Counted from the first letter of the stretch, positions 9,321-63,159 are shown. The stretch: 64,000 bases of DNA from Octopus vulgaris (GCA_951406725.2 OX597826.1:14074001-14138000); one strand, 5' to 3'. Numbers and translations are program-made. Notes: generated by a model not told the origin, from the letters alone.

Positions 9321-9799
9321 TATATATACATATATATAAATAAACGTACATATATAATAACGCATACTCTTACTCACACGCATGTATGTATATATTTATT
9401 TTATAAGGTCGTTTTTTTCTTTTAGTTGTATGTCGCAGTTACAGCCAAAACCAACTTTACTTTCGTTTATGTCAATCTTACTCCCGAGCTATATTAAATT
9501 CGAAATTGGTATTTTAGCTAAATATGTGATTAGATTATTTCTTCTACTATCCTTGATATAATGTCATATTATCAACTTTTCTCACATCTGTATATTTATA
9601 CTTATAGTATGCAATAACCTTCAGGCTTTTGAAAAGAAATCTGTGTGAAGATTGAACTAAATATTCTATTGATCTTAAATCATCTTATTTGTGTTAATCC
9701 GATGATGAAGCACAGTGACGACGTATATTGTCTTTAACTACTTTCGTTACTTATATCTAATTTTACACGATATTACTGTGCTTTGTTGCTTTATGGAGA

Positions 9800-15070: not shown

Positions 15071-16488
15071 GATAATAACGTGTGTATGTGTATGTGAGTG
15101 TGTTTGTGTGTGTATGTGTGTAACTATGATAAGGCGTGTTGCTTTATATTACGATAAGTATTACTTAATTTACTGGACAAAGGAAAGTTGATAGATTTCA
15201 GTTATATCTGAATTTGTTGTGAAAAACATTTTCCTCAAGTCGAGGTACCAGTTTCGGAAAAACTCAAACGATTCTGCTTCAATGGGAGCGAAAAAAAGAA
15301 TTTCACAGCAAATTTTGAATCTCCAACATTACAAGGATATGTATAGGAAATTTTGTTTTAAAATACACACTATCCCTAAATTGAAGAAGAAAGAAAGTCG
15401 GTGGGGCATTCTTGTGTAGGTATGCTGCATGTATAAAAAGTATACGGTCAAATACACAATACGCGAAGTGCTAGAAATAGGAGCCAACGCACCACAAATC
15501 CAACACAATTCTGTCTTCGCGATGTTCAATTTAATTGAAATGACACGAAAAAGTGTTATCAGCGGTCAACTTAAAAAACAAACAAACATAAATAAACTTT
15601 GCTTTTCATAAAGATAGAGGTGAAGTATTACATTTTTTAAAGGACAGAACAAAGTTGATTCATTATTGAATTTTAAACTTAGGTAATTTTCCTTATGTTG
15701 CCTTACACTTTAGTTTCATCATTGTCTAATTGCTTTCATGGGCTTCTTTTTCATTTCACTAAATAGGCACCAAATTTAGTTAACTTAAACCTACAAAATA
15801 ACTATAATTTCATCCTCATGCAACTTAAGAAGTTACTTTCATTTTTGTGTAATTGTTCCCATGAATCTCTTCTGTGGCATAAACGGCGTTCACCTTGAAC
15901 CTTTAGTATAACTACAATTTCATCCATGAGTAACTTTACAATTTCATAAATATAAAACCGATGAAAAGGAGATAATGCACATTTAACTTTCTCCCTTAGA
16001 CGGTTGATTTATTTCGGACTCTACCTTGAGTCCAATATTTTGGCAAATCGTGAGTAACTCTCTTAGGATGGGATGGCACGTAGAGAGTCGGGATCACATC
16101 CATTGTTTGCAGCCTAAAATTTTACTCAAGAATTAGATTTTAGTTTGTATATAGATGTTGTAACCTTTCTTGCAAAATATGGACAGACAGACACACACAT
16201 TTATTTTTAATTTATGGATTATGTATGTGCGTATATATATGTGTGTGTATGCATGTGTGTGTGCGCACGCACACACATATATATATAGATACACATACTT
16301 ACTCATTTGCTGCTCAAATTACCGGGAGTCTAACATGTCCAACCTGCAATGGTCTGTGTAAATCACCTTTAGCACCGAAAATACATATGCATAGTCATGA
16401 AATGCAATAAAAATCTTTGTATATATTAAAATTGTGAACAATGAAAACAAATTGACTATACTGTCGGATTTTTTTATCTATATATAGT

Positions 16489-16900
16489 TGTGGCTGTGTG
16501 GTAAGTAGCTTGCTAACCAACCACATGGTTCCGGGTTCAGTCCCACTGCGTGGCATCTTGGGCAAGTGTCTTCTGCTATAGCCCCGGGCCGACCAATGCC
16601 TTGTGAGTGGATTTGGCAGACGGAAACTGAAAGAAGCCTGTCGTATATATGTATATATGTATATATATGTGTGTGTGTGTGTCTGTGTTTGTCACCCTAG
16701 CACTGCTTGGCAACCGATGCTGGTATGTTTGCGTCCCCGTCACTTAGCGGTTCGGCAAAGGAGACCGATAGAATAAGTACTGGACTTACAAAGAATAAAT
16801 CCCGGGGTCGATTTGCTCGACTAAAGGCGGTGCTCCAGCATGGCCGCAGTCAAATGAATGAAACAAGTAAAAAGAGTAAAAAGAGTAAGAAAGAAACAAA
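16489..16900 (+). mobile_element. tRNA-derived SINE, family B (gtggctgtgtggtaagtagcttgct head)
   Basis: A-box tggtaag and B-box ggttcagtccc; internal (TA/TG)n; homologous to 22874 and 33415. Confidence 0.9.
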
Positions 16901-22873: not shown

Positions 22874-23278
22874 TGGCGCAGTAGTGGTTGTGTGTTAAGT
22901 AGCTTGCTTACCAACCACGTGGTTCCGGGTTCAGTCCCACTGCGTGGCACCTTGGACAAGTGTTTTCTACTGTAGCCTCGGACCAACCAAAGCCTTGTGA
23001 GTGGATTTGGTAGACGGAATCTGAAAGAAGCCCGTCGTATATATGCATAAATATGTGCGTGGGTATGTATATGTTTGCGTGTCTGTGTTTGTCCCCCCAA
23101 CATAGCTTGAAAATCGGTGCTGGTGTGTTTACGTCTCCGTAACTTAGCGGTTCGGCTAAAAGACCGATAGAATAAGTACTAAGCTTACAAAGAATAATTC
23201 CTGGGGTCGATTTGCTCGACTAAAGGCGGTACACTTACATGGCTGCAGTCAAATAACTGAAACAAATAAAAGAAAAAA
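22874..23278 (+). mobile_element. SINE family B
   Basis: Colinear with 16489-16900; A-rich tail. Confidence 0.9.
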
Positions 23279-25466: not shown

Positions 25467-25786
25467 ACACACACACACACACACATACACACACTTTCAT
25501 ATATGCGTGCGTAAACACATGCAAACATGTATGTTTGTATACATAGATAGAAAAACAAATAAAATCACATGCATTATATTATTGTGATACAATAGGACCA
25601 ATGGTTTAAGAGAGCGTTTAGAGTACCAGGCAAAATGCCTTGCATTTATAGTAATTCTTTGTTTTCTGAATTCAAGTGCCGCAGATTACAATAGTGCATG
25701 TATACATCTATCCATACATTCATACACACGCTTATAAATGGACACACGCATACATTTGCATACATATGTATTACATGTATGCGAGG

Positions 25787-26015
25787 GCGGCGAGCTGGCA
25801 GAATCGTTAGCACGCCGGGCGAAATATGTAGCCGTATTTCGTCTGCCGTTACGTTCTGAGTTCAAATTCCGCCGAGGTCGACTTTGCCTTTCATCCTTTC
25901 GGGGTCGATAAATTAAGTACCAGTTACGCTCTGGGGTCGATGTAATCGGCTTAATCCGTTTGTCTGACTTTGTTTGTCACCTCTATGTTTAGCCACTTGT
26001 GGGTAATAAAAAAAC
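25787..26015 (+). mobile_element. SINE family A
   Basis: Full-length copy; TSD-like tattacatgtat on both sides. Confidence 0.9.
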
Positions 26016-26399
26016 AAATATTACATGTATACGTGCATATTACCTATATTACAGAGTGATATACATGTGCGTATATATTGCGTATGAGGAGACTTATATA
26101 CGTATATTTATTCTGCAGGAATTTTGATCCGAAATCAGTCGTCTTTTATTTTCCACAAATATTTTTCGGTAACCTATTTCTATGACCTCGTTAATGATTT
26201 AGTATTTCCAGATGATTTTGATTTATCAGTTCATTTCGCTACTGTGTTATGGCATCACATCATGTGTATGAGTGTTGCAATTTATCAGACGCAAGAGCTT
26301 AACATGAAAGATTAATTCACTTGGTATGGTAAAATCATTTAAAAACTGAAACTTACTGATTATATCCCGCAAAGCGCGCCATTTCCCCACTTAAGATTA

Positions 26400-27560
26400 A
26401 AAATTAAAATAAAAAATACTACAACCGTTGAGTGTGTTAACTCTCATCCAAAATTCCCTTGTCCATAGCAAAAATACTCCTCCAGTATTGTTCTGACCTT
26501 GTCTACATAATTTATATTTTTTGCGTCAATAATTTTGATCGCTGCGGAATAAATGATAATCAGATTGGGCAATGTCCGGTGAATATGGGGGGTGGGGTAT
26601 CGTTTCTTATTCAAACTGCTCCAGCCTTTGGAATGTCGTTCTCGCTGTATGTGGCCGAGCATTATGCTGATGGAAGGACACTTTTCGTCTTGAAACTAAA
26701 GATAATAATTTTTCTTCTAGTGCGGACTTAAGCCACTCAAGCTGCTCGCAGTACAACTCCTTCGATATCATATTGTATGAGTTTAAAAGTTCAAAGTGTT
26801 CTAAACTTTTCATATCCCACCAAACAGATAACACCATATATAAGTGAAGACCGTCTTTAACCTGGGGTGTTAGAATTTCTCCTTTACTTACTTCGGCGAT
26901 TGATATTTTTATAGAGAACCCATTTCTCATCACCAGTCACTATACGATCCCCAAAAGTTTCATTCGTGAGACGTCACAACAAAGAATACACACATTCACT
27001 CTTAGCGAGCGACTAGAACCGGGAAGTTTGTGAGGAATGCATTGACCCAGTTTCCTGACTTTTTTGATGGCACGAAGGTGTCGATGAATGGTTGCATGAC
27101 CAAATCCAAGCTTCTCTGCTAGTTCCTTAACAATTACGATGGAACTTTTTCCCAGCAGGGTTTTCAGGACGTCCTCGTCGAGCTCAACAGATCGAGGTTT
27201 GTCTTCTAGGCTATAGTTTCTGGCTCAGAATTTTTGGAACCACCATTGATACTGGCTTACGCTTATTGTCCGATCCCTACGTACTGCATTAATATTCGTC
27301 GCACCTTCCTTTGCATTGTTACCTTTATTGAACTCATAAAGCAAAAGATACCGAATATGCTCTTTTGCCACTTCCATTATAGCTTTGAAAAAATAACTAT
27401 TAAAATCGAACTGCACTCTTCAAAACTTGCATTAAAGATAAGTACAAGGTAAAATTTCTACCTCCTCTAAAGCAAGTCCATACAGGTAGCTTATCCCGTC
27501 CCTTCCGACTTTTAGCTCATGCAATTGAAAAATCCGCATTATTTAGGGGATGATCCACTA
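26400..27560 (-). mobile_element. Mariner transposon (decayed transposase)
   Basis: MEVAKEHIRYLLLYEFNKG..WWFQKF (HTH), SVWWDMK..HFELL, FHQHNARPH and PHPPYSPDIAQSDYH motifs; TIR-like ggatcatcccctaaataatgcggattttt at the right end. Confidence 0.92.
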
Positions 27561-27564
27561 CGTG

Positions 27565-27610
<46 letters not shown>

Positions 27611-27614
<4 letters not shown>

Positions 27615-27821
27615 CCCCGAAAGGATGAAAGGCAAAGTCGACCTCGGCGGAATTTGAACCCAGAACGTAACGGTAGACGAAATACGGCTACGCATTTCGC
27701 CCGGCGCGTTAACGTTTCGATAAATTAAGCACCAGTTACGTACTGGGGTCGATGTAATCGACTTAATCCCTTTGTCTGTCCTTGTTTGTCCCCTCTATGT
27801 TTAGCCCCTTGTGAGTAGTAA

Positions 27822-27823
<2 letters not shown>
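27611..27823. mobile_element. SINE family A with inverted 5' half
   Basis: 27611-27717 is the 5' half on the minus strand; 27717-27823 is the 3' half on the plus strand; flanked by (TA)n. Confidence 0.85.
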
Positions 27824-27885
<62 letters not shown>

Positions 27886-31585: not shown

Positions 31586-32046
31586 TATTCACTATTATAA
31601 AAAAAAAATTATATTTCATAATGATTATCCATACTTAATCTTTTTGGCGCGTTTGTACTCTGCTCTTTGTTACCATGTAAACATTTTATAGGCAGTGAAG
31701 ATATAGGATCTAATATTTTCCACAATTATAATTCCATTTCTCATTTATAAAATTCTTATTTTAATTCAATCCTCAAAAAGGAAAAATAGTTCAAATATCT
31801 TTTTACAAAAGAATATTTATTAGTTTTATTGCATTGCCAAGTAAACGAGAGGATTACAATGAAAATTACGGGCGCATGCGTGTTAATATTCTTAAGTTAT
31901 TACACCTGGAAATGTACAGAACAAGATTTCTACAGTAGAATCTGCCTAATTCGTCACCTCCAAAGGAAACTAAAATGCGCTTAAAATATTGCAGCCGAGA
32001 ATAAAATTTTCAAAATTAATATACATTATAACAGGTAAATTTGGAA

Positions 32047-32455
32047 AGCTGGCAGAATCGTTAGCACGCCGGGCGAAATGCTTTGCGATATTTCGTCTGC
32101 CATTACGTTCTGAGTTCAAATTCCGCCGAGGTCAACTTTGCCTTTCATTCTTTCGGGTTCGATAAATTAAGTACCAGTTATGCACTGGGGTCGATATAAT
32201 CGACGTAATACGTTTGTGTGTCCTTGTTTGTCCTCTCTGTGTTTAGCCCCTTGCGGGTAGTAAAAAAGTAGGTATTTCGTCTGCTGTTACGTTCTGAGTT
32301 CAAATTCCACCGAGGTCGACTTTGCCTTTCATCCTTTCGGCGACGATTATTAAGTACCAGTTATGCACTGCGGTCGATATAATCGACTTAATACGTTTGT
32401 CTGTCCTTGGTTGTCCTCTCTGTGTTTAGCCCCTTGTGGTTAGTAAAGAAATAGG
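32047..32455 (+). mobile_element. SINE family A, head-to-tail dimer
   Basis: Core repeated at ~32090 and ~32273; TSD aggtaaatttg flanks the whole dimer. Confidence 0.88.
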
Positions 32456-33094
32456 TAAATTTGAGACAGTTTATTTTATTTTTTATGAGAATCTAAAAAA
32501 GTAAATCTATAAATTTATAAAAACATGCTACAAAAATAATCACCAAAAATTTAAACAAGAAAACTTATAGAAATCATGTCTTTTGAAATATACAAATAAA
32601 ATAGTCATTTTATTTATTTGTATCAAGTAAAAACAATAAAATATGAAGTTGTAATCACACAACATATTTTTTCACCTTAATTGAAATCTTATTACAAAAT
32701 ACAAAACATTGATTGCTGCAGAATGGTCATTAAATGGTATCAAATCTACCATAAGCTCAGTAAACTCTTTCACTTTAAAACAAAATCTGACATATAACTC
32801 ATGCAATTTATTAGTTAGAATTAATACAGTAGACTCAGCTTAAATCGTCTTTGGCTAATTCGATCCTTCACCTAATTCGCCACATTCAGTCCCCACCTAC
32901 GGATGACAAATCTGGTGAAATCTCCTGTATTTTTAAACATTAATTTTATTTTATTTCATTTTTAAAATACTACTTTTTCCAAAAATAAGCCAATGGGCTG
33001 AAATACAGACTTAAATAATTTTGTTAAAATCGGTTTAATTTTCTGGAAATAATAAAAAATTACTGGGTCTATATATGAAAAGAGTTTCTGAATA

Positions 33095-33400: not shown

Positions 33401-33414
33401 GAACTGCTACTTGG

Positions 33415-33528
33415 TCCTGGGTTCAGTTTCACTGCGTGGCACCTTCAGTAATTGTGTTCCACTATAGCCTCGGGTCGACTAGAGCTTTGTTAGTGGATTT
33501 GGTAGACTGAAACTGAAAGTAGCCCGTC

Positions 33529-33579
<51 letters not shown>

Positions 33580-34060
33580 CATATACAGGGTGTCCCAGAA
33601 GTTGCTCACCATTACGATCTTTTAAAAGAATACAGCCTTATTGATTTCGAAAACAATTTATTGAAATTAATCGTAACAAATGCTCATATTAAGCACTCTC
33701 TGCAATAAAACTTGCAGAAAAAATATAACAAAATAAAATGCTTTAATCATTTTAAATGAAAACCAGAATGGTGCGCGACTTCCGGGACACCCTGTATATA
33801 TATATATATGTGTGTGTGTATATATATATATATACACATATATATGAGTCTATGTATGTATCTTTGTGTCTGTGTTTGTCCCCACCATCGCTTAAGAACC
33901 GATGTTGGTGTTTTTATGTCCCGTAACCTAGCGGTTTGACCCCAGAGATCGATAGAATAAGTACTAAGCTTACAAAGAATAAGTCATGAGGTCTATTTTT
34001 TCGACTAAATGGCGGTGTTCCAGCATGGCCGCAGTCTAATGATTGAAACGGGAAAAAAGA
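33415..34060 (+). mobile_element. SINE family B interrupted by a MITE
   Basis: Homologous to 16489 on both sides of 33586-33794. Confidence 0.85.
33586..33794. mobile_element. Tc1/mariner-type MITE, 209 bp
   Basis: 28-bp TIRs cagggtgtcccagaagttgctcaccatt / aatggtgcgcgacttccgggacaccctg, with TA on both sides. Confidence 0.88.
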
Positions 34061-36169
34061 ATATATATATATATATATAATCAAAGCTAAATTATCTGTG
34101 AACCTCTGAATGAATTCAAATGATTACTCCCTCACTAAATGTTTTTGAAAATGTTTGTACAGCCCTAAACTGTCGTTTGGGATTTTGATCCCAAGCTGGC
34201 GTGAAAGATTCTGTCCTTTTCCACCCCCTATCTAAGAGGAAACTTATGTCTCTTTCCACACTCTCGTCTCGATGTCACTGAAAAATGTATAGCAATATAT
34301 CTCAATAAGCCAAGTAAGACAACAATGTATTCTCTAATAAAACAAAGCATTTGCACACACACACACCACTAAGCAGAAATTGAAACACTTGATATTCTCA
34401 TTTTCTGATTTTTAAATCAAGCCTATTCTGATAAAAGTTTGACATTCTTTTTAGTTTCGATTAAAATCATTCCAAAATTTCATACTTTCTATATTCAGTA
34501 ACACGTATTTAACATAAAATAAAATAAATGAATCAATGAAAACAACGTCATTGATGAATAACCAACTTTCTAATTTCGTTAACAAACATTCTTGATGGGA
34601 TGTTAGACTCTATCTTTCATTTATGTTATTTATTTTTTTTTTGCATTGTATGAAATTTTAATATATGTTCAATGTGAAGACAAGCAGTCAATTCTTATTT
34701 TTATTTATACCAAAATATAATCGTAAAAGATTCTTTTTCCGAAACTATTCGTCGACGTCCTAATCAAGAAATACTGTCTCCTGTAGTTGTCCAAACATTC
34801 TCGTCTCATCCAATAGCTAAGACAGGTGAATTTTAAAATGTCTAATATAATTAATAGGATCAAGTGACATTTATTACAAACACGAGTCTATTAGTGACAA
34901 TATATTACAGGTTGTTTCTGGAGAAAGGAATAAACTAATTACAGAAATACGAACCGATTTGAAAAAGGCTATCAACCGTCGAATTTAATTTACAAGTTTC
35001 TTCAAGAATCTTTGAACATTTGCATGTGTCGCTAAATACACATTGCAGAACAATGAAGGAACAGTTAATACGGTAAGGTATGTTGACCGAAGAATGAATA
35101 TATCAGTAGCTTTTTAATGTTTTGATCGTAGGTTCATATCTCATATGAGCTATGGAGAATGAGTTTACGAATAAAATTTCACTTTTATCGGCATTCAAAA
35201 GTATGTTTTGTCATGCTTAAATTCCTAACCAAAAATTATCGCATGAAAATTTGGATACAAGCAAACGATCGAATCTCGTAGAGGTCTTCAGTAAAAGTCA
35301 GCATGTGTGAATCATTCTTCAATGAGAAATTACACTTCTCTACCCAAAAGGACTTAACTGTGTGCGTGGAGTTGTCCCTATTTATTACTAGATGTATTTA
35401 TTGCTAATCATTTTATGGTCTTGGTTGTTATAATTTTAATGGAGTGCTAATGATAGGGAAGGAATCGAATTTTTGAAATATTGTGGTCATCGAATATATT
35501 CTGAATGTGTGATGGAAGCCAAACAAACATATTCATCATATGAATGATGTACAAAAGGATGTACAGGAAGTGAAAAAGTCACTACAGCTATATGTTGATT
35601 AGACTCTCCGTTCTGACACCAAAAATGATTTACATCACCAGCCAAAATATTAGGGTGGCGCAACAATTAGTTCCAATAAAATGCAAAACGGTATTTATTT
35701 TGGCTCGTTATATTCTGAGTTCCAATCTCGCTGAGGTCAACCTTGCATTTTATATACTTCCAGGGCCGATAAAATTACGTATAAATAAGGTAGTGATGTA
35801 GATTGAATTTATCAGCCCTTCGGCTAGAAATATAGAAATTTTCATTGGTAACTGATGCGAGAGAAGTGTCAGCGTCGTTAGACGCCAGGAAAGATGCCTT
35901 GTATAGTCGATCCAATTCTTAATCGAATTGCACCATGCTTAATCTTACTCTTCATACTCGTAGGAACGATTTGATTGGCAAATTTTCTTCTTCCAAACAT
36001 AATAGTCTCCTCGTAGTTCATATTCAGTTTCCACCAAAGTCGACTTGTTTATTTTTTAGATATGGATAAGAAGTTTCAATTAAAATTTTAGTATTAAAAA
36101 TTTAGTATTTTCGTATATGTACATAATATATATAATATATAATATATATATATATATATATATTATATA

Positions 36170-36250
<81 letters not shown>

Positions 36251-36265
36251 TTCATTAGAATTTTC

Positions 36266-36735
36266 TCCACGCCACCATCTCTTCAGTTATCCGGCCATCG
36301 GAAAAACGCTATGAAAAATGAACGTTATGCAAAGGGAAATTACTGTGGTATTGACCGCTATTAAGACAAAAGCGCTATTCGAATGACCACTAAGTAAGGT
36401 AAGGGGGTAAAAGGTTCATAGTATTTGCGTAAGCGCACCTGTTCATACTTATACATGTGCACCCGCACACCCACGTGGGTACGCATACATTCATCCACCC
36501 TCACTTGAAAAACGTGCACATCCTTACTCAAATCCTTCAGTTAATTTTTGTTTAACGGTCATCTTTCATAGCGTTTTTCCGATGGCCGGATAACTGAAGA
36601 GATGGTGGCGTGGATTTCCACCTCCGCATCCGAAACTCAGAGTATTATCTTGGCTGCCGAATAATTGTCACATATTACATTTACAGATAAATTCCTCTAT
36701 TTACATAATATTAAGGTATCTTTCATTCTTTTGTT
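36266..36735. mobile_element. PLE pLTR-like fold-back element (arms 36266-36345 / 36538-36614)
   Basis: tccacgccaccatctcttcagttatccggccatcggaaaaacgctatgaaa is mirrored exactly; same family as 60117-60310. Confidence 0.85.
36585..36654 (+). ncRNA. Type-I hammerhead ribozyme, canonical core
   Basis: gccggauaa CUGAAGA gaug..gugga-uu-uccac..cauc c GAAA cucagag UA uuaucuuggc; GUA cleavage triplet. Confidence 0.8.
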
Positions 36736-36794
36736 ATCTTACCGTTTTTATCAATATATAATATAATATAATATAATATGGTATAATATAATAT

Positions 36795-36830
<36 letters not shown>

Positions 36831-36932
36831 TCGGGGTGAGTACTTGATAATTGTAAGCACCTGTATATACCGTTTGGTGGTGTAGGTGGTGGAGTAAATT
36901 GATCAAAATAAAAACATGATGCCAAGGATTCA

Positions 36933-37010
36933 GCGGTACATATGTTTCGGGCCTTTATTAGACAGATTTATAACAATGCATAATGTATGTCTGTGGCCTT
37001 CTTCAGCCGC
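36933..37010 (-). ncRNA. Type-I hammerhead ribozyme (mirror of 39599-39676)
   Basis: Minus strand gcgg CUGAAGA aggcc...ggccc GAAA cauaug UA ccgc. Confidence 0.8.
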
Positions 37011-39016
37011 GCACAACAACTTCCACAAGGACATGTGTTACATCAAAAATTCTTGGTTGGGGATGCAAATCCTCTAATTCGCGTACGACATAATCCAGCA
37101 ACATCATAGAATTGAAGCGTCCATCTCGTTCTTCTCTCAATGTAGAATGAGGAAATTTGGATGTTGAAGTAATGTAAATAAATTAATAAATAAATACATA
37201 TATAGACGTGAAGGGACCTGGTAATAAGAGTAAATAGGGGTAAAGATGGAGGGGCGAGAATTCAGGACGAAGGATAAAAAATATATAAAAAGTGTAAGTA
37301 TAGAAAAATATAAAAGTGTAGAGTATAAAGATATAAAGAGATATAAGGAGATATAAAGGGGATATAAAGAATATAAAAAAATATATATGAATATAAAGGT
37401 ATAAAATTATAAAGTATAAATTGAAATAGAAATAAAAGTAAAAATAGAAATAAAAATAAAAATAAAAATAGGAATAAAAATAATAAAAAATGTAAAAGAA
37501 TATAAGGATAAGGGATGTATAGTGGTTACGAACCAAACATGGTGGTCAGGAAAATGACAAAATTTAGTTGTAGAAGTTTTGGGTGTCAATAAATCAACAG
37601 GGGTGTCTGGGGACTTAGTGTATTGTAAATCAGAGCTGTTGAGCAGCTAATCTAGTTCCTTGAATTAAGTGGTCATCTTGTACATACCAGCATGGATACA
37701 TACACCCATATACACGCAACATATACGCACGCATACACAGCTCCAAGCATATAAGCATACATACGTACTCACGTGTAAACATATACAGAAACACATATAC
37801 ACCCACACACATGCGCATATATACATACATACAACAGAATATGCGTATATATACACGGACATTATACGTGTACATATACACATATACATATATACACACA
37901 CACGCACATACACATATACATATACACATACACATATGCATACATATATGCACATGTATACATATACATACGTACGCATATACACACACCTATATATACA
38001 TACGTACGTCCATCCTTACATACATATACACAGATGGCCACACATACAGGTTTAGATATAAGATATTAAAGGATGTATATAAGAACGCATGTAAAGAATC
38101 ACGCACTCACGTCTACACGTACACGCACACACGGCTGTGTGTCTATATGTGCGTGTACATATACAATTACATACACACACAGAGACATACGCGCGTATAG
38201 GTATAGCTATAAGATATTAAAAGATGTATACAAATATGTGTAAACATATGCATATAAGAAATCTGCGAAAACATGTAAAAAAACATGTAAAAATTTTTAA
38301 AAATTATTAAAGAAAATTATTAAAGAAGAGTAACGGGGTATGCACATCCAGACGTAGATGTTTACTCGTACATACGTACACATATGTATACGTATACATA
38401 CGTACACGGACGCACGTATAATCATAAAGCGGATCCATAGATAAGTAAATAAGGAATAAGCAAAAAATAGACAAATATAGAGATATAAAGCGATAAGTTA
38501 GGGGTAAAAATAGGAGTAAGAATAAAAATTAGAAATAAAAGTAAGAAATACAATATAAAATAAGAAATACAATATAAAAGTTAGAAATAAAATATAATAT
38601 AAAATATAAAAATTATAAGAACTATAAGAATTAAAAAAAGAATGAAAATAAAAATAAGAATAAAGGTAAAGCGAAATAGAATAGGATAAAGTAAAATAAA
38701 AATATAATCGAGTAAAGCTTAACATGAGATGAAGGAAAAAATAAAAGGTGGTTGAAAGTGTAAAGTTAAAGGTGTGTGCTAAAGGTGACCACATAGGGGC
38801 GGGCGGGGGGGAACTGAAAATTGGAAGGGTGGGAAGTGGAGTTTGGCGGTGTGCGCTCAACCTCCGAGTAAGAAATGTGAAAAGGTATAGATATAGGGAA
38901 ACAAAGAGTCTAGATAGGAAGAATGTAGGTGTAGGAGAAGAAATATATAGGGAAAAAAAACATATATGGGAGACAAAATGTGTATATATAGGAGGAAAAT
39001 GCAGGGAAATACATAT

Positions 39017-39063
<47 letters not shown>

Positions 39064-39598
39064 CATATATATACACATATATGTATATACATATATATAT
39101 ATACATACACATATACACGCACATATAGGAAAGCGGGATGCGCTGGAGCCGTCAGGTTGCACCGGGTGGGAGGAAATTGCATGGGGAGTTGGTATAATAG
39201 CCTAAGCTTTGTAGTATTTGAAAGTATTAATAAGTTTGTGTATACAGGATGGTTATATCTCTTTATATCTCTTTATATCTTTATACTCTACACTTTTATA
39301 TTTTTCTATACTTACACTTTTTATATATTTTTTATCCTTCGTCCTGAATTCTCGCCCCTCCATATTTACCCCTATTTACTCTTATTACCAGGTCCCTTCA
39401 CGTCTAAATATGTATTTATTTATTAATTTATTTACATTACTTCAACATCCAAATTTCCTCATTCTACATTGAGAGAAGAACGAGATGGACGCTTCAATTC
39501 TATGCTGTTGCCGCATTATGTCGTACGCGAATGAGAGGATTTGCATCCCCAACCAAGAATTTTTGATGTAACACATGTCCTTGTGGAAGTTGTTGTGC

Positions 39599-39676
39599 GC
39601 GGCTGAAGAAGGCCACAGACATACATTATGCATTGTTATAAATCTATCTAATAAAGGCCCGAAACATATGTACCGC
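39599..39676 (+). ncRNA. Type-I hammerhead ribozyme with large loop II
   Basis: gcgg CUGAAGA a ggcc-(~41 nt)-ggcc c GAAA cauaug UA ccgc; palindromic ACAUAUGU stem III. Confidence 0.8.
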
Positions 39677-40299
39677 TGAATCCTTGGCATCATGTTTTTA
39701 TTTTGATCAATATATATATATATATATATATATATACGCATGTGTGTGTGTCTTTGCGGTGTAGCAAATACGAAACGATAAAATAAGTAGCCAGCTTAAC
39801 AGAAAATAATTACTGGGGTCGATTCCTTCGGCTATAAACGCTTGAAGGCGGTGCCCCAGCAGACCGCATTCTAGTAACTGAAACAAGTGAAAAATTTAAA
39901 AAAAAAGGATAAAAGATCAGTATTTGGTAAAGAGATAGCAAAATTGATAAAGAATAACATCTTTCTCGGCCTTTCACATATATGTGCTAAGATATAATGA
40001 CACAGATCAATTTTGACTTGTCATAATTTAAGTTTCGATAAAATACATACACACTGCGTCAATTAATCGTGTCATTTTTGTGAAATTGTACTAAAGTTGA
40101 GCTCTCTCCAAGCACAATGAAACCTGAGTCATTCATTTTAGTCTTCCCACAAGTGAACTCAAATCAGTTCTTTCTTTACTGCGTTGCATATCCGTAGATG
40201 AAATCGATAAAATTGTACCAGTAACGTACAAAACGTAGATCCACATGACTTCGCTATCGTTTTTGTGAAATTGTGCTCTAATATATTGTGCTGCAATAT

Positions 40300-45035: not shown

Positions 45036-45102
<67 letters not shown>

Positions 45103-45189
45103 AAGGGTGAAAAGGAACACACGAGTTGATATATATGAAAAAACAAGTCAAAAATAGAAAATGCTAAAATAATTTTATAGTGAACATTT

Positions 45190-45227
45190 CAGTACCGGTT
45201 TCGGTCATTTTGAGACCTTTTCAACTG
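45190..45227 (-). ncRNA. Type-I hammerhead, U3-A8 variant (sense to the PLE ORF)
   Basis: Minus strand cag UUGAAAA gguc-ucaaaau-gacc GAAA ccgg UA cug. Confidence 0.75.
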
Positions 45228-45945
45228 TAACGATTAAATAATTAAATTTAGAAAAATTAGAAGAAAAGTTTTTTTTTAAAGAATATTTCTATAGTAGTGT
45301 TCAGATTTAAGTGGCATTCTGCCTTTCTCTGACTCCCTTGTTTGCATTTGAGTGTTGGAGGTCGTTGTGAGTTCTTGGTAGGGTAGTAGAGGATAAAGGC
45401 TGGTGAGGAAAGGGGGGTGGGAGAATCTGGGAGTGCCCTGATGGTCGTATTTTGAATGGTCAGTGGCGGCTGGCAGTCTCAGTTCAATTCAGGAGAATAT
45501 TTATATTGACAGGCTTGTTTATAGAATTAGCGTAGGTGTTATACTAAAAAACATTAGTGACAAAGTTAAGGGGTAGGGGGTGGAGAAGTAGAAGAAGAAG
45601 AAGAAGAAGAAGAAGAAGAAGAAGAAGAAGAAGGAGAAGATGACGATGATGGTGATGGTGGTGATGATTATGACGACGATGATGATGATAATGATGATGA
45701 TGAAGAAGAAGAAGAAGGAGGAGAAGGAGAAGATGGTGGTGATGATGATGACGACGATGATGATGATAATGATGATGATGAAGAAGAAGAGGAAGAAGAA
45801 GAAGAAAAAAAAGAAAAAAACAGAGAAGGGAGAATATGAAAGGGTGTAAGTATAGCTATGAAGGGGCTGATTAGTAATGGATTCTATGGAGTGTAATATT
45901 TGTGTGTGTATATATATTTTTCTTTTATTCTAAAGTTGAGGTATA

Positions 45946-46272
45946 TTAATTGTTTGTCGTAGACCCGTTAAGAAGTGGCTTGTATTTTGTAATAAAGAGA
46001 TTTTCTTTACTTATTCGTTGTCTCGAGGTTGTATCGTCCCTAAATTGGTAGAGGGGGAAAATTCTGAAGTTTGGTGTTTTTTTGTTGGCGCAAGTATCTA
46101 TGTGTTGGCTAAAAGCTATTTTTCTGTTTTGGGGAATTTTTATCTGGGATCTGTGCAGGGCCATTCGTTTACGCAAACCATTTTTTGTTTGGCCTATGTA
46201 CTGCTCTTGACACCCGGAGCAGGTTAGTGAGTATATTAGGTTCTCCGAAGCACATGTGAAGTTGCTTTTCAC
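45946..46272 (-). CDS. GIY-YIG endonuclease domain of the Penelope-like element (open fragment)
   Basis: NFTCASENLIYSLTCSGCQEQYIGQT..LRKRMALHR...KENLFITKYKPLLN. Confidence 0.85.
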   Translation of the reverse strand: MKSNFTCASENLIYSLTCSGCQEQYIGQTKNGLRKRMALHRSQIKIPQNRKIAFSQHIDTCANKKTPNFRIFPLYQFRDDTTSRQRISKENLFITKYKPLLNGSTTNN

Positions 46273-47134
46273 TGTAAACCGTTGTCCCTGTTTGAAGGAG
46301 AACTCTGATCCCTCAATTAGTTAGTCGCATATCCCGCAATTGGGTCTTCCTAATTTTTTTTACTGTCGGCTTCTGTGTTGAAGAGTGAATTCGGGCTTGT
46401 GTAAGGAGACTTTTCATGGATCTAGGCTGTCTTTTGCTTTTTATGATCGTGTGTGTTTGGAGGATTGTGTTCATTCTGTGGTCTTTTTTTAGGAGGGGTA
46501 TGTTGTGGAGGATGGTGTCGAAGGCTTCGTTATTGAGAGGGTTGTGTGTGGAGATGTATGGTAAGGCTTTTGGTTGTAAGTTTTTCTTTGATTTGGGATG
46601 TCTCAGTTCCTTGATGTTAAGTTGAAGGGCACGTTGAATGCACTTGTCAATAAGTGAAGGTGGATAGTTCCTGGTGATTAGGGTATCTTTTAGTTCTTGT
46701 AGTCGTGTGTCTCTGGTGTTTGCGTTAGAGACTATAGTGCATATCCTTTTTGCTAGATTGAAGGGGATTCATGCCACCCCAGACACACCAGGATGAATAT
46801 CCCCTTCAATCTAGCAAAAAGGATAGTTAGAGACTATAGTGCATATCCTGTCAATATAAATATTCTCCTGAATTGAACTGAGACTGCCAGCCGCCACTGA
46901 CCATTCAAAATACGACCATCAGGGCACTCCCAGATTCTCCCACCCCCCCCCTTTCCTCACCAGCCTTCTTCCTCTACTACCCTACCAAGAACTCACAACG
47001 ACCTCCAACACTCAAATGCAAACAAGGGAGTCAGAGAAAGGCAGAATGCCACTTAAATCTGAACACTACTATAGAAATATTCTTTTAAAAAAACTTTTCT
47101 TCTAATTTTTCTAAATTTAATTATTTAATCGTTA

Positions 47135-47172
47135 CAGTTGAAAAGGTCTCAAAATGACCGAAACCGGTACTG
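47135..47172 (+). ncRNA. Type-I hammerhead, U3-A8 variant (mirror copy)
   Basis: cag UUGAAAA gguc-ucaaaau-gacc GAAA ccgg UA cug; palindromic ACCGGU stem III. Confidence 0.75.
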
Positions 47173-47221
47173 AAATGTTCACTATAAAATTATTTTAGCA
47201 TTTTCTATTTTTGACTTGTTT

Positions 47222-47269
<48 letters not shown>

Positions 47270-48321: not shown

Positions 48322-51300
48322 ATGGAACAAAAACGCAATAGAGGACAATTAATCATTCGGAGAGATAGACAACACAAAGCCGGACAGGAATAACAACAAT
48401 TAGAGGGACAGGGAAAAAAGGACAGGTTATTCATTGCTTTCTTTTGTCAGTCAGATTATGAGATGTCCTTACAGTTTCGAGCAGTTACACTTGAGGCTAT
48501 TCCATATGGTTGTCCCCAAAAAATGGCATTAGATTTTTTTTGTAAGAAAGCAAGCGAATGTGTACGACAATAATGATAAAAAAGGAAAACATGTTACACA
48601 ATTACAAATAAAACCAACAAGAATATTACAACAGCAGGTGTCTTTCGACAAAGGACAAATCAAATTAAGCTGGTGTGTATAAAGTGAAATCCTTAAGGCA
48701 GGAACGTAGGAGTTGGACACAAGAGGTGTTGGCGGTCAGCAATCAGGCCATACATAAGAAGAAAAATCCATAGAAATGCAAGAAAAACAAGGGTGGTTCA
48801 CTAACTATTAAAAAGCTATGGAGACAAATACATTATGAAAACGAAGCTACAACAACAAAAAATTGGAGGAAATCGAAAACAAACATAGACACTAACTCCA
48901 GAAGAACCGGACTGAGGCATCGAACCTCTAATTACCCAGGAACATACGCGGAAATGACCTCCATCTCACCCTAAATACAGAGTAGAAACCCATATTCTAC
49001 AACACATAACAGAGCAAATAGCCAACGCATGAAATATAGAAGACAACCATCGACCAATGAGTACAAACACAAAGGAAAAAAGACCTGAAAGACAAATAGC
49101 ATACAGGCAACGACCAGACCATAATAACATGTACCTGAGATGAATGAATACATGGGATGAAAGACAAATAAAATACTGAGAGCACAGGTGCTACAATAGG
49201 AATAATAATCATCATGCAACTCATGATTTACTACCAAAAATTCCATATATCCTGACTGGTGAAAAAAGTATGGATGATGGGAAGAAAACAAAACTTATAA
49301 CCAACGGAATTAGTATAAAAGACATGAACCATCCTCCCTACGTGGGAACCAGAACGCCGAGATCAGAAAATGGAGAGACGGTAACACAATTCCTTTTTTT
49401 AAGGAGAAATACCAAAATCAGGCACCGGACCCGATAATACACGGAATTTAAATGAACACACAGAACATATAGAGCCGAAGATCATAAATTTGGCATATAG
49501 GAACCTCAACAAGAATGAGATGAACCTCCTATTAAAATGTTTCAAGTTTACACCGATATCCACCCTTAATCTCATTGAACTGAAATTTTATATTGAACAC
49601 TTCAACCGCCACCCCCACTTATAGAATTCTTCAGGAATAAGGATTTAAATAATGAATAAATAGTTAGAAATAAATTCCACTTCACCCCTACAAGGGAAAG
49701 GACAAATATTTAGACGCGAATATAGACACGGTTTCAAAATTTCCCCTAAATACCCACAGATACAAGCAAAGACTTCGTGAAATAGAAAAGGAAGCCTTAC
49801 AAACGTTGAAGAATGACAACTCAACCATCTTAAGAGAAGCCGATAAGATAGTGATCATGTACAAGGACTATTATAAAGATAAAATATTGGAAATGTAAAC
49901 AAACCTACTACAAGGAAGAATCAAGACACACAGAAAAAATAATGAACAAAGTCAGAAGACTAATCAATGAATTCCAAGATTCCTTCATAGACAAGGAGAA
50001 AGATTATATATGCAACTCTGTAATCAAAGAAAGCAATTTCTATGGATTACCCCAAATCCACAAAAACTCCGAAATACAAAGTGCCATAAATAAGCAGAAA
50101 AACCAGTGCGTAAAAATGCTAAGGAGGCTGTCTTCAAAATAAGACCAGTAGTTGCTGGACCTCAAACAACAACACGACAACTAAGTCATTTTTTAGATAT
50201 ACTCCTAAAAAACTGTGTGTCCTTTAATTCTTAGTTATATACAGGATAGCATAGATTTCACCCAACACGTCCCTCCCGCTGTCGCAGAAGGAACTATACT
50301 CACAAGTTTTGATGTCACCAATCTCTATACTAGTATACCTCACACTTTAGGTCTAGAAACAAGGAAACACTGGGTAGAAAAACATAGAGAACGGATAAAT
50401 GAACGCTTCAAGACTGACTTCATCACCAAGGCCACACGCCTAGTAATAGAAGAAAACGCCTCTAGATTCGAAAGTAAAACATATCGACAGTTAAAAGGGC
50501 ACGGCTATGGATACGCAGTTTGCTCCCTCATATGCACACTTAGTTATGGGATATTTGGAAGAAAAACTTTATGAGGAAGTAGTAAAGATTTTCGATCAAG
50601 AGTACAGGAAATATAACATTAAAAAGTGGAAACGCTTCCTAGATGATTGACTCATCTTCTGAGACAAATCGAATGAAGGTCTATATATATTTAACAATAT
50701 ACTCAATACACTTCCCCCATCTATTAAATTCACGACAGAATCCAGTTGCAATGAACTACCATTCCTGGATATCCACATAAAAATACAGAACTCCGCAGTC
50801 ACAACAGACATATTTTACACAAAAACTGACACACGCCAATATTTAAATTTCTATTCTTGCCATCCATCACACACCAAAAGGAACATCCCATACAGCATGG
50901 CAAGATGCATCTGTGCTATAGTGACTGACCCCAAAATTCGTGAAATCCGACTTACGAACTCAAAGATTTTCTCACAATGCAGAAACATCCCTTTGGATTA
51001 ATTAAGTAAGGAGATGAATCTGGACAGCAACCAACTAAAGACACCTAAGGAAAAAGTGAATGAAAACACGATTACGTTCGTTAACACACACAATCCAAGA
51101 ATAACCAACATCATTCTCGCCATAAAATGGAACATGCTTATACTCCTACAAAGCCCCAAAATGAAAAATCTGATTGAAAAAGTCACCTTACGGAACAGCA
51201 GACGCCATCGAAAAAGACTTTTAAAAAATCTTCACAAAGGCAGAATTCAAATCAGAATTCAAAGTAAAAGAATGTGGAGATAAGAGATTTGGACCATGCA

Positions 51301-51840
51301 ACAACATCAACAACTTCAAATACTTGGAAAGTGGTTCCCACTTAAAATTCAAGAGCGGATCCCTTTTCAAAATAAATGCAGATATAAACTGCAAAATGCA
51401 AAGCCTCATATACTGCATTATTTACCCAAACTGTAAAGAAAATTACATTGGTGAAACAAATAATTCTCTCTGCCAACGTGCAAGAATCCACAAGCATCAT
51501 ATCCGACAAGTGGAATTACGCAGGATTCCATTAAGTATGCATATGGAAATATGCAGCGACAAAAAAATTTAAAATGTTTTCCTTTTACAAATGTGCACGG
51601 GACGATCCGCATACCGAAAAGCAATGGAACTATATTTCATCAAAGATTTCTCTACAAAATTAAATGCGAGAAAGAATAGCGGAGGCAGAACATTTAGTGT
51701 TATATTAATGTTCTCTAATGCAAAAGCATGAAACTGAAAGAAGCGTGATCGAAGTTACACAGAATAAGCATGAAAATGTTCCCAAACACACACTTACACA
51801 CACAAACACTTCATCAAGGGATTCTCCCCAAAATTGAATA
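48320..51840 (+). mobile_element. Near full-length decayed Penelope-like element (ORF remnant ~49480-51670)
   Basis: EADK.IVIM, FYGLPQIHK, RPVVAG, FDVTNLYTSIPH, GTAMD, RFLDD, LPFLDI, TDTRQYLNFYSCHPSHTKRNIPYS and LIYCIIYPNCKENYIGET; multiple stops and frameshifts. Confidence 0.92.
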
Positions 51841-56077: not shown

Positions 56078-56956
56078 AGTTCTCCTTTATATTCGCACGA
56101 AGTTATACAAACACGGGAGAAGCGATGACAGATTATATACATTTCAATGGAAATTACATTAAAAAAATACATGAAACATTCCAGGTTCTCGTTCATTTAC
56201 GAGAGAGAAACTGCTAGCTTGGGTGTTTTAGGGCAATCTGCGTTCCTAATAGCCAGTCGTTGTTCATTCTGGTCTAAATGTTGACCAAATGGTGCATGCT
56301 TAATACATTTCAGTTATGTGAAGGAGATGATAGGCCATATTTTCATGATAATTGTGCTACAGTTCGTTGTGATATATTTGTATAATAATTACGTTGAGAA
56401 GAGGTATTACTTGATAACATAAAACCAGTATAATTACTACCAGTATTCTTCTTATTATTAATACCACAAATAAGAAGACGGTAAGCTAGCAGAATTGTTA
56501 ACATGCCGGGAAAAATAGCGGCATTTCGTCAGTCTTTACGCTCTCAGTTAATATTCCACCGTTGTCTACATTTATTTTCATCGTTTAGCCTTCGATAAAT
56601 TAACCACCAGATATGCAGAGGGGTCGATGTCATCCAGTAAACCCCTACTTTCAAATGTTGGTGCCTTTACCTATAATAGTAAAGAGTATTACTTCTGTTA
56701 AATGTCCGAGAGAGCAGAATGGTTGCCATATCAGGCAAAATGATTAGTAATATCTATTCTTGCTCTTTATTTCCTGAGTTCAAATTCCGCTGAGGTCAGC
56801 TTTCTCTTTCATTCTTTCGGATTTTAGGTACTGCGATCATTGTGATTAACTTGCCCCTTGTGCAAAATTTTAAACAATTATTACGACTATTATTATTTCG
56901 GATTTACGCACACATCGAGGATTTTTGAGGGGAGGGTACTTAAGATTATATATTAA

Positions 56957-57192
56957 GGCGGCGAGCTGGCAGAATCGTTAGCATACCGGGTGAAATGCTT
57001 AGCGGTATTTCGTCGGCCGCTACGTTCTGAGTTCAAATTCCGCCGAGGTCGACTTTGCCTTTCATCCTTTCGGGGTCGATTAAATAAGTACAAGTTACGC
57101 ACTGGGGTCGATATAGTCGACTTAATACGTTTGTCTGTCCTTCTTTGTCCCCTCTGTGTTTAGCCCCTTGTAGGTAGTAAAGAAATAGGTAT
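56957..57192 (+). mobile_element. SINE family A (older diverged copies at 56480-56680 and 56710-56870)
   Basis: Full-length match to 3375. Confidence 0.9.
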
Positions 57193-57849
57193 TTACGATT
57201 ATATCGATCACAGTATTTGTGTGGTACCTCATTTTATCGAACTAAAAGAAAAAAGAAACCGGAAAACAAATTTAGCCGCGGCGAGATTTAAACTGAGAAT
57301 AAAATATGGAAAATAAACGGAATAAATGACGTAAGATATTTTGTCCGACACTAAATATTTTGTCAATAAAAGAGTTACAGCTTGTACCTCATTGACAAGT
57401 TTTACCTCAAAGATAAACTGAGCGAGGAGAATGTTTACGCAATAAAATACAGCATAAACGTTATACAAAGTAAATGATGAAAAGACAGAGTAGAGCCTCT
57501 TAAGGGAACCTCGCATTGTAAGCATGCTTAGTATGTCTTGTAAGATTGGGCAAACGAAAGAAAGTCAGTAACCAAAGAATGAGCTACGATTTGAAAAAAA
57601 TAATGCCAGTACAAATATAAAATTACCGAAGAGAATTAATTAAAAGAGGTATTACCATCTGTGCACAATGTAATAATAAAACAATAATAATGAATTAGCA
57701 AACTCAGAACAAGCATATATACGTATGTATGTACGTATGTATGTATGTATGTATGTATGTATGTATGTATGTATCCATCTATCTATCTATCAATCTATCT
57801 ATCTATCTAACCGCTCTATACGTCACTAGCGAACATAGTAAAATAAGGC

Positions 57850-59408: not shown

Positions 59409-59448
<40 letters not shown>

Positions 59449-59456
<8 letters not shown>

Positions 59457-59970
59457 ATTAGGGCTTAGTAAAATAAATTACTTTGCCACATACTGAACTT
59501 TCTAGAAATAGCAGCCCAAAAAGTTTTTTAGCCATTTCCACTACTTAAAGAAAATTTCTCTCAGATAATGTTTACTCAAAATAAGAAGGGGAGAGTAGGA
59601 AATCTTCGCTTGCACATTTTGAATTTGTTGGTACTGGCAGTCTGAACGGGTCATCTGAGGTGATAAGTCGCCAAAAGGTATGTTCTTTCTTTTAGTGCTT
59701 CCAAATCCAAAATAAGAAATGTTGAGCTGACGAAAGAAATGCTGAGTATATTTGGCTAATCTAGAAACGTTAACGTTCTCAAACAATCTTTGTACTTGTG
59801 ATATTTTTCTGTTTTTACCTCCATACCTTCGTGAGTTATTTTGAGTAAACATTATCTGAGAGAAATTTTCTTTAAGTAGTGGAAATGGCTAAAAAACTTT
59901 TTGGCTGCTATTTCTAGAAAGTTCAGTATGAGGCAAAGTAATTTATTTTACTAAGCCCTAATTATATAAT
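59449..59970. mobile_element. Fold-back element (arms 59449-59584 / 59836-59970) next to (TA)n
   Basis: ~135 bp arms are near-perfect reverse complements. Confidence 0.9.
59721..59784 (+). ncRNA. Type-I hammerhead in the loop of the fold-back
   Basis: guugag CUGACGA aaga...ucua GAAA cguuaacg UU cucaaac; palindromic AACGUUAACGUU; weak stem II. Confidence 0.65.
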
Positions 59971-60063
59971 GTAACATTTTGAATTCGCCTTAAATGGTCC
60001 TTTTACATACTGAATACTTGGTGAAATTGATTAATAACTAATTAATTTTACCCTCAATTGTTG

Positions 60064-60095
<32 letters not shown>

Positions 60096-60116
60096 AAAAA
60101 CGGTAAGATTATTATC

Positions 60117-60310
60117 TGTAATTAATATGTGACCATTATTTAATAACCAAGATAAAATTCTGAGTTTCGGATGCCGAAGTGGAAATCCATAACATCATCT
60201 CGATTATCTGGCCAGATAACCGAAGAGATGGTGTTGTGGATTTCCACTTCAGCATCCGAAACTCACAGTTCTATTTTGGCTATTGAATAATGGTCATATA
60301 TTAATTTACA
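60117..60310. mobile_element. Spacerless palindrome of two head-to-head hammerhead-bearing pLTR fragments
   Basis: Centre ttatctggccagataa (60204-60219); right arm gccagauaa CCGAAGA gaug..cauc cGAAA cucacag UU; same family as 36585. Confidence 0.85.
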
Positions 60311-60405: not shown

Positions 60406-61073
60406 GACGCGCCCACAAGGCTTTGGTTGGTCAGGGGCTATAATAGCAGATATTTAACAGAGTACCAAGCAATGCGACTGAACCTGGAACCACGTCGTTA
60501 GAATGGAAACTGCTTAACACACACACAAAGCCCACACCAATACAGAGATACTGTTACGTAAGAGATTCGAAACTGAGTGAACTTGCCGTTGGATTTCATT
60601 CCGAATATGTAAAGCAAACTGCTATTATTATTGTTTTTATTCTTTTTGTTGATATTGCATTGCTCATTCACTTCCTCCACATCATCATCATCAGCATCAG
60701 CAGCGGTATCATAATTATTAATTCTTTAATATTATTATCATGAGAACTGAAATCACCTACGCCGTAATAATAATTATTATATTCCAGTTTATTGTGTTCT
60801 TTACAGACATCCCATTTTTACTCAATATTGTTAGATGCTAATGAAGGAATGTTTAAGAAAGAGTATAAAATTACAACAAAAAAGAACCATAATACTAAAA
60901 ATAAAGAGAAATTAATAAACAGAAGAAACATGGAATATTTCATTTCTGCTTACCATATTTCTACTTTGATAGAACAGAAAAAGTGTATATAGAGCTAAAG
61001 CCGCAGGCGTTTTCATATACCATTACATTCAAAATATACGTATACAATAAATATCATTCCAAATCTCTCTCAG

Positions 61074-61593: not shown

Positions 61594-62903
61594 AATAGAC
61601 CATGTTTAGTAAATCTTAAAACTATAATATTTACAACTTTCTGTGAAAAAGTTTTCCTCGTTTTCTTTTCTGCTCTCTGAGTATTTGAAAAAATAAACAT
61701 CGTTTCCATTGCAAAAACACTACTGCATTCTCCAACTGGTCAGACAAACGAACATCTCAAGAAAACTTAAGAACTTTAATATATTAATTTTTGTGTGAAA
61801 CTTTGATTTTTCTTTTCCTCCTGACTACCCATATATGTAAAAATACCTTTTATTGCAACAACACAACTGAATACAGAAATTCAAAAATTTATCGACGTGG
61901 AGATTACTATATATATATATATAATTTTTCCTACCAGTAATTACAAATAGAATAGGGTGAATTGCTTCTTTTCAAAGCCAAGGTCAGCCTTCTTATTGGT
62001 CGCTAGTAATAGTAAACACATGTTTTGACCTCTGCTGACCCAAGGGGGGAGAATATTCTTTTGTCTTCTATTACTGACATCCTCACCATCTGTCGAATCA
62101 ATTTATAGACCTGTAGAATTTGATCTATTCACCAACCTGCTACACTTCCTCCAACTATTTCCTTCAACAACCACATATTTATAATTACCTCAAGTGCAAG
62201 ACAAACATATAAAATAACGAATATTTAATAAAATCTTTTAATAATAAATGTAAATAGTAATAATGATAATAACAATAGTAGTAGTGGTGATGGTGATAAT
62301 GATTATAGTAAAAATAATAATAATAATAATGATAATAATAATAATAATAATAATGATATACTGCAGCTGCTAATACTACAACTACTACTAATCTGATAGC
62401 ACAGAAATCTTAGGCCCAACTACCCTACTACCACTACGCCTCCTCTACTCCTTTTGCTATTGCTGCCACCACTGCTGCTACAACACGAGAGCAAAAGTAG
62501 CAATAATTAATATAAGAACATCAACAACACAGGAAGTAACTCAAATCCACCACCGTCTGGGAACCCGTGGTTAAAGAATATAGCCTAGCTAGCGACTAAA
62601 GTCAACAAAAATCTCTCTCTATATATGTATATATATATAGTAATTTGAGAAGAGAAATCGTATTGTAGGAAATTACCAGTTGCATTCTAATATCCATTTG
62701 AAATTTTTTGAGTTTTAAGTCTATCGGTGAAAGTATTTCCTTACTTGATCAATTCTATAAAGAAGCGCATTGAGTCACTTCAAATAAAAGCAGACAAACA
62801 TTCCAATAAAGCATATGAGACGGTATCTGTAAACAATACATATTGTTATATGCATAGATGCCATTATGTGTGCATGTTTCAAACATCTCTCCCTCTCTGT
62901 CTT

Positions 62904-62935
<32 letters not shown>

Positions 62936-63054
62936 GTTAATCCAAACAAGAAAACACAGAAAAAAAAGAGAGAAAAAAAAGAGAAAAAAACACAGCAACG
63001 CAGGACGTGGAACAATTAAAGTATTATTGACGCTCAGGAAAGAAGGGAAGGAGG

Positions 63055-63089
63055 GTTTAACGTTTCGAGCGGAGCTCTTCGTCGGAAAC
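63055..63089 (-). ncRNA. Minimal hammerhead, U4C variant of 5907-5941
   Basis: Minus strand guuu CCGACGA a gagc-ucc-gcuc GAAA cg UU aaac. Confidence 0.7.
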
Positions 63090-63159
63090 AAGGAGAAGGA
63101 AAGATCCCAAGGAGGGAAGACAGAGGAGACAATATTTGAGTTGGTGGTGCTTAAGAGAT

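Follow-up and report, generated by a model that had tools for sequence, protein, structure and literature searches.

An inverted-arm element of the Octopus vulgaris genome is most probably a tailed, 5'-truncated insertion of a Penelope-like element

We analyzed a 64,000-nt stretch of one strand of the Octopus vulgaris genome (GCA_951406725.2 OX597826.1:14074001-14138000; hereafter the window), which is AT-rich and abundant in microsatellites. An element of ~2.9 kb at 36829-39710 is most probably one retrotransposition product of a Penelope-like element (PLE), in which a 5'-truncated minus-strand copy of 2.4 kb meets a 458-bp inverted copy head-to-head; we give this reading a probability of about 85%. 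A sequence-only reading had taken the locus for a symmetric cassette starting at 36899, similar in appearance to a TIR transposon, but probably retro-derived and linked to PLEs. The retro-derived, PLE-linked origin is supported by the type of hammerhead ribozyme (HHR), by a tail on one side only, by the (TA)n target and by the presence in the window of a coding PLE with the same layout. The symmetry gave way to a minus-strand body with an inverted truncated copy and a 70-nt tail on one side, so the insertion most likely begins at 36829. The layout is the published PLE arrangement and the locus an ordinary example of it; the oddities of this insertion are its 70-nt tail, its long-loop hammerhead and its long, microsatellite-rich body. 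No description of this family was found in the literature covered, which did not include Repbase or most subscription papers.

Among the 1950 inverted pairs detected in the window, the arms of this element formed the longest (462 nt at 98% identity before trimming). After trimming, the left arm (36899-37356, minus strand), which represents the 3' end of the body or pseudo-LTR (pLTR) region, and the right arm (39253-39710, plus strand), the inverted 5'-truncated second copy that has no tail, were identical at 450 of 458 positions without gaps, bearing out the earlier description of near-identical inverted arms of ~450 bp. The differences comprise three transitions and five transversions, four of the eight falling within 29 nt, and the longest perfect run is 112 nt. 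The arm has no further copy within the 64-kb window. A divergence of 1.7% fits the young insertion that had been proposed, but it provides a loose clock only, as the two arms could derive from distinct cDNAs that were unlike from the start, or could have been homogenised since.

The two ends of the element are not alike. Outside the left arm lies a unique 3' extension of 70 nt, a putative tail (36829-36898, minus strand; boundary accurate to 1-2 nt), AC-rich on the sense strand and missing at the right end, compared with 30-40 nt in published elements. No stable fold was predicted for this tail (z -0.65). It ends 2 nt from the edge of a (TA)n-rich tract in the left flank (36754-36828), whereas the right arm is flush with an (AT)n tract (39710-39736). 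The outer ends therefore lie 2 and 0 nt from TA-tract edges, and just 0.7% of all positions in the window are 3 nt or less from such an edge. The element thus occupies a microsatellite, AT-rich target, and a TSD cannot be read inside (TA)n. Polarity follows from the inner boundaries. The inner 100 nt of the arm have an A content of 0.56 and a C content of 0.02, and the left continuation has 0.63 and 0.00. When the continuity of this A-rich array past the arm was scored, 6 of 300 shuffles reached the observed score on the left and 218 of 300 on the right. This left-only continuity indicates that the left arm and the interior form one minus-strand body and that the right arm is a shorter inverted copy, placing an inverted 5'-truncated copy at the 5' end of the element.

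A descriptor scan located one type I HHR motif per arm: at 37010-36933 on the minus strand for the left arm (predicted cleavage after 36937) and at 39599-39676 on the plus strand for the right arm (predicted cleavage after 39672). In each arm the site of predicted cleavage is 38 nt inward of the outer end, in agreement with the earlier estimate of about 35 bp. All core bases are present, namely CUGAAGA, GAAA and the GUA cleavage triplet. The left motif has 4-bp stems I and II, a 41-nt loop II region and an 8-nt palindromic stem III. Stem II is flanked by an unpaired A and C and not by a direct G10.1-C11.1 pair, which makes its closure irregular, and in the right motif a single substitution weakens the stem II extension. 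With a descriptor composed after the motif had been seen, none of 3000 dinucleotide shuffles of the arm yielded a match. Across 40 block-shuffles of the window, the strict descriptor averaged 0.0 matches against 3 observed, and the relaxed descriptor 0.025 against 5 observed; a weak match from the relaxed scan at 61677-61769 was dropped as likely chance. Scanning the window with Rfam at gathering scores returned no matches, and a scan of 36000-40000 at E<=10 returned 71 matches, none of them a hammerhead. We rejected these weak matches, mostly miRNA models on (CA/TA)n, as composition artefacts. The failure of Rfam to recover the motifs is likely due to the long loop II.

The HHRs had been called intact, which holds for the core sequence; stem II closure is irregular, however, and the minimum free energy (MFE) fold shows a hammerhead junction in the left motif only. 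In isolation the two motifs folded no better than shuffled sequences (z 0.28 and 0.51). Helix probabilities for the isolated motif were ~0.77 on the left and ~0.1 on the right, and 20 nt of flank lowered the predicted values to near 0 for both. Stem III comprises 2 bp as a monomer versus 8 bp in a predicted dimer, and for two left HHRs a double hammerhead is predicted, at -35.4 kcal/mol versus -23.6 kcal/mol for two monomers. This palindromic, dimer-type stem III would thus prefer a second same-sense HHR, but each strand carries only one. For the HHRs covered in the relevant part of Cervera and De la Pena 2014 (PMC4209133), no cleavage was reported for the monomer and weak cleavage for the dimer. 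Self-cleavage is predicted to be weak or absent for the monomer here, and the ribozymes are probably idle passengers.

Folding of the whole element gave ~466 predicted long-range pairs on either strand, with 77-78 of the 78 HHR bases paired with the opposite arm in the MFE structure. It had been suggested that a transcript would end in a ribozyme and could form ~450 bp of dsRNA. The duplex is indeed predicted for both strands, but it contains the HHR. Ribozyme and dsRNA are therefore predicted to be mutually exclusive, because the duplex buries the HHR and stem III favors a same-sense partner that is absent here. A read-through RNA, with its predicted duplex of ~460 bp, would more likely feed siRNA production or editing than self-cleavage. 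Production of siRNAs from inverted PLE arms is already published, siRNAs matching Penelope inverted repeats having been reported in Drosophila in the part of PMC3681739 consulted. Such arms are hence a known source of dsRNA and siRNA, and the present data give no indication of a host function.

The interior between the arms (37357-39252, 1896 nt, minus strand) is non-coding, continuous with the left arm, and likely a 3' UTR. It contains U/C-rich, G-poor blocks and degenerate (CA/TA)n, and 721 of its 1896 nt lie in tandem-repeat arrays. None of the 12 stop-to-stop frames of at least 90 aa in the element matched Pfam, so its description as a microsatellite-rich 1.9 kb without a recognisable ORF stands. 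The best hit of 151 PLE proteins searched against the element by tblastn had an E value of 0.65, and an HMM built from 93 PLE proteins found no domain below E 5; the same searches produced strong matches at three other loci in the window. The 151 proteins came from one search and none of them ends in the Hydra-type motif, so PLE clades outside the query set are poorly covered. An ORF beginning in the HHR or tail, the arrangement of PAc, was rejected, since no ATG-initiated open frame extends to the tail end. An ORF for RT and GIY-YIG is thus not detected in the element, as expected of a 5'-truncated copy, and we classed the locus as a fragment derived from a PLE, not a complete element. Since it encodes no detectable protein, it is presumably unable to move alone.

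In composition the interior is unlike host DNA, with a purine fraction of 0.629 that none of 213 overlapping background windows attained. On the minus strand, G makes up 0.067 of the non-microsatellite interior, and the 3' UTRs of two coding PLEs, elements C and E, have 0.071 and 0.076; the G-poor bias is not common to coding PLE D (0.19) or to element B (0.20). At 2.2 kb or more, the non-coding body is long, compared with 722 nt from stop to HHR in element C. We rejected the interior as a decayed two-unit tandem, the unique blocks scoring at chance (155 and 221 of 300 shuffles reached the score); the A-rich blocks (11 of 300) and the CA blocks (19 of 300) were marginal in the same test. A tRNA scan gave no hits, a blastn search of 36829-37200 against a phage collection gave no match, and a bacterial promoter scan, a type of scan that does not apply to this host, was at chance.

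Element C (45101-47230), located 5 kb away, provides a coding counterpart. Its inverted arms are identical at 381 of 384 positions, with a U3-A8 HHR in each, and it has a one-sided tail of ~30 nt and TA flanks. On the minus strand it retains a frameshifted, 5'-truncated coding remnant of the RT thumb and GIY-YIG (Pfam E 2e-05; tblastn 8e-72). Because element C and pieces of the B family show the same inverted, tailed HHR arrangement, PLE insertion routinely yields this layout in this genome.

The arrangement agrees with published PLEs, for which we used parts of each source and the definitions given in part of PMC8969392. Craig 2021 (PMC8557442) describes an inverted 5'-truncated copy that produces inverted repeats around the unit, a tail of 30-40 bp and a microsatellite bias; in its supplement, Penelope-13_HM (3045 bp) is listed with an inverted copy and an outward-facing pair of HHRs, antisense at 102 and sense at 2944. 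Arkhipova 2013 (PMC3846280) documents copies that have inverted pLTRs on either side and may or may not show a TSD. With the EN+ PLEs that carry an inverted truncated copy (legend to Fig. 2 of Craig 2021; Pen2/Pen2a_Av in Arkhipova 2013), the element shares pLTR-formed inverted terminal repeats, a putative one-sided tail, an HHR in the repeat, a microsatellite or AT-rich target and a TSD that is sometimes absent. It differs from them in having no detected RT-EN ORF, a tail of 70 nt versus 30-40 nt, no second pLTR in direct repeat and a low-complexity non-coding body of at least 2.2 kb.

Similar relations hold for other HHR-bearing elements. In Cervera and De la Pena 2014 (PMC4209133), HHRs occur in pairs on opposite strands, with a palindromic stem III and one additional base following position 9. 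The dual minimal HHRs of Schistosoma mansoni in that paper, attributed to truncated PLEs, resemble our motifs in being two PLE-type HHRs of opposite orientation, and in both cases stem III is palindromic and a base is added between positions 9 and 10.1. They are spaced ~100-700 bp apart, however, versus 2.6 kb here, and the octopus motif has a shorter stem II and a much longer loop II. Non-LTR retrozymes, whose derivation in animals from PLE pLTRs is proposed in a preprint (bioRxiv 10.64898/2026.07.22.740005), are likewise non-coding and carry type I HHRs. They consist of head-to-tail tandem units with same-sense HHRs, whereas the element has one HHR per strand, on opposite strands, and no dimer in cis.

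We infer the following route for the insertion. A PLE RT/GIY-YIG protein made elsewhere would have nicked both strands of the (TA)n tract, and two cDNAs would have been primed from the element RNA. One may have begun at a distal start site, yielding the tail, and the other at a proximal site 70 nt inward. Both would have stopped early, at ~2.4 kb and 458 nt, and their 5' ends would have been joined head-to-head. The two-cDNA step is modeled on PAc biochemistry. In the portion of Frangieh 2024 (PMC11167929) consulted, both strands are nicked and extended, two RT start sites delimit the tail, a dimer is predicted, and HHR cleavage is dispensable for insertion in vitro. Self-priming is an alternative to the two-cDNA route, and for inverted junctions Arkhipova 2013 (PMC3846280, in part) favors self-priming on an antisense template. 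A 102-bp palindrome is present at the inversion junction of element C, and none is present at that of the focal element.

Rival readings of the locus concern its body and its two arms. The body may not be a 3' UTR; it could be a dedicated non-autonomous PLE derivative, or a pLTR with captured foreign DNA, mobilised in trans, which we regard as possible if rather doubtful. Such an origin would suit 2.4 kb without a coding match, and it has published parallels in the sources as far as consulted: Pen1_Av captures host spacers of 0.9-1.5 kb and pLTRs mobilise unrelated DNA in trans (PMC3846280), non-autonomous Chlamys elements exist (PMC8557442), and the preprint cited above takes animal retrozymes back to PLE pLTRs. 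The strand bias of the interior, however, lies above all 213 background windows and matches the UTRs of two coding PLEs, an ORF may end at the junction, and the tandem HHR monomers of retrozymes are absent. Long, near-perfect inverted arms would also be expected of a non-autonomous DNA transposon (MITE or foldback) with 458-bp TIRs at TA, in which the HHRs would be inherited or incidental, and the window does contain a mariner DDE fragment and an HHR-less 139-bp TIR pair at 59446-59973. We consider this reading highly improbable. The 12 nt outside each arm differ, the right side alone being TA repeat, and with no flank shared at the arms the expectation of TIRs flush with a TSD on both sides fails. 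Moreover, the low-complexity array crosses the left inner boundary only, and the HHR, tail and layout match those of the coding PLE C.

If one young PLE family had inserted twice, independently and facing outward, on either side of 1.9 kb of host DNA, this would account for the eight arm differences, with their cluster of four, in a window dense in HHR-bearing fragments. We regard such a double insertion as very unlikely, since the inner junctions have neither a TA tract nor a host-like break, the interior does not resemble the host in composition, and the arm is not found again in the 64 kb. A cassette selected for regulation, in which ribozyme-trimmed read-through RNA would become long dsRNA for siRNA production or editing, would draw on the duplex predicted for either strand and on the Drosophila Penelope siRNAs (part of PMC3681739). 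The predicted sequestration of the HHR within that duplex makes such a role highly improbable, as does the fact that at least two other elements of the window show the same layout as a by-product. An assembly artefact, whether a fold-back chimera or a collapse of repeats, is likewise highly improbable. Complex PLE insertions with TA flanks are known to cause difficulties in assembly (PMC8557442, in part), but here the arms differ at eight sites, the one-sided tail and the TA junctions are in keeping with known biology, and the layout recurs in unrelated families. A single PLE insertion thus remains our preferred reading.

We compared this PLE insertion with the Hydra clade, using the parts of Craig 2021 Files S1, S2 and S7 consulted. 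Hydra-clade PLEs such as Penelope-13_HM and Hydra-1_Obim have a (TA)n target, as here; the combination of (TA)n target and canonical HHR is present in the element and is not exclusive to that clade. The palindromic stem III begins with AC in both. By our own count, stem II is flanked on both sides by a base that does not pair in 15 of the 26 Hydra rows of File S2, as in our motif, where the flanking mismatch is A.C versus U.U or U.C in those rows. Hydra-clade PLEs are further marked by the RT/EN motifs RWK and DKT and a CxCX5C linker, and lack CCHH; the element retains only 16 candidate codons. This frame of 16 codons and a stop on the minus strand (39202-39252) starts exactly at the inversion junction and, in a post hoc comparison, weakly resembles the C-terminal end of PLE proteins of the Hydra clade. 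It reads S-C-x-H, 11 residues and a stop, a motif present at 0.4% of start points in the window when counted post hoc, and the ORF of Hydra-1_Obim, translated by eye, likewise ends in C-x-H plus 11 residues. The K-F found two to three residues after H in Hydra ends is absent from the junction frame. Loop II is 41 nt versus 3-10 nt in Hydra rows, and the 3' UTR would be 2.2 kb versus ~0.2-0.35 kb from stop to HHR in the Hydra consensi consulted. None of five short motifs was found in the part of the line-wrapped Craig 2021 supplement searched, and by eye the arm showed no resemblance to the 3' end of Naiad_Obim as given in that part. With two weak leads, membership of the Hydra clade is conceivable and, on balance, doubtful. 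Somewhat more speculative is a new Hydra-type PLE family marked by roughly tenfold growth of the 3' UTR to 2.2 kb of microsatellite, an A.C-closed long-loop HHR variant missed by Rfam, a 70-nt tail and twin priming that used both target strands and two RT start sites. If this were true, the many inverted copies of this genome would directly test how PLE inversions form.

Seven strong HHR motifs, belonging to four sequence families, occur in the window together with three or four inverted insertions, so that the host genome would be a rich natural data set on the origin of PLE inversions and tails. The locus matters mostly for annotation hygiene, as such insertions mimic TIR transposons and Rfam missed every hammerhead motif in the window.

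Several further elements were observed in the window. Element B (36243-36755, 0.5 kb) uses the same TA tract, which separates it from the focal element, and the two lie tail-to-tail. It has a plus-strand HHR at 36588-36650 with a Hydra-like stem III, and its 68-bp inverted copy is cut inside loop II. Two decayed HHR pieces of the B family at 60092-60310 form an outward-facing inverted pair of ~220 bp with a one-sided tail. A near-full-length, decayed PLE ORF on the plus strand (49445-51680) encodes RT and GIY-YIG, interrupted by stops and frameshifts; no hammerhead was found at its 3' end. At 8430-9340 the minus strand carries a decayed fragment of a PLE from a different family, in which the 3' region is C-rich. 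A short repeat is present in two copies of 77% identity (5783-5978 and 62913-63125), each with a minimal minus-strand HHR and TA or TC repeat ends; the HHR at 5937-5911 has a full core and that at 63085-63059 one core mismatch.

The pair of 139-bp inverted arms at 59446-59973 (97.8% identical) surrounds ~250 bp, with (TA)n on the left only and no hammerhead found, and is possibly a MITE or an HHR-less PLE end. A Tc1/mariner transposase fragment lies on the minus strand at 26607-27224 (Pfam Transposase_1, E 2e-10). A SINE-like dispersed repeat of ~240 bp, 85-92% identical among copies, was found at 3374-3613, 25785-26024, 32039-32457 and 56956-57195 and in other partial copies; one pair is in tandem (32089-32457) and another lies head-to-head near 27606-27836. 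A second dispersed family of ~390 bp, 77-84% identical, is represented at 16486-16872, 22880-23271, 33409-34063 and 60414-60523.
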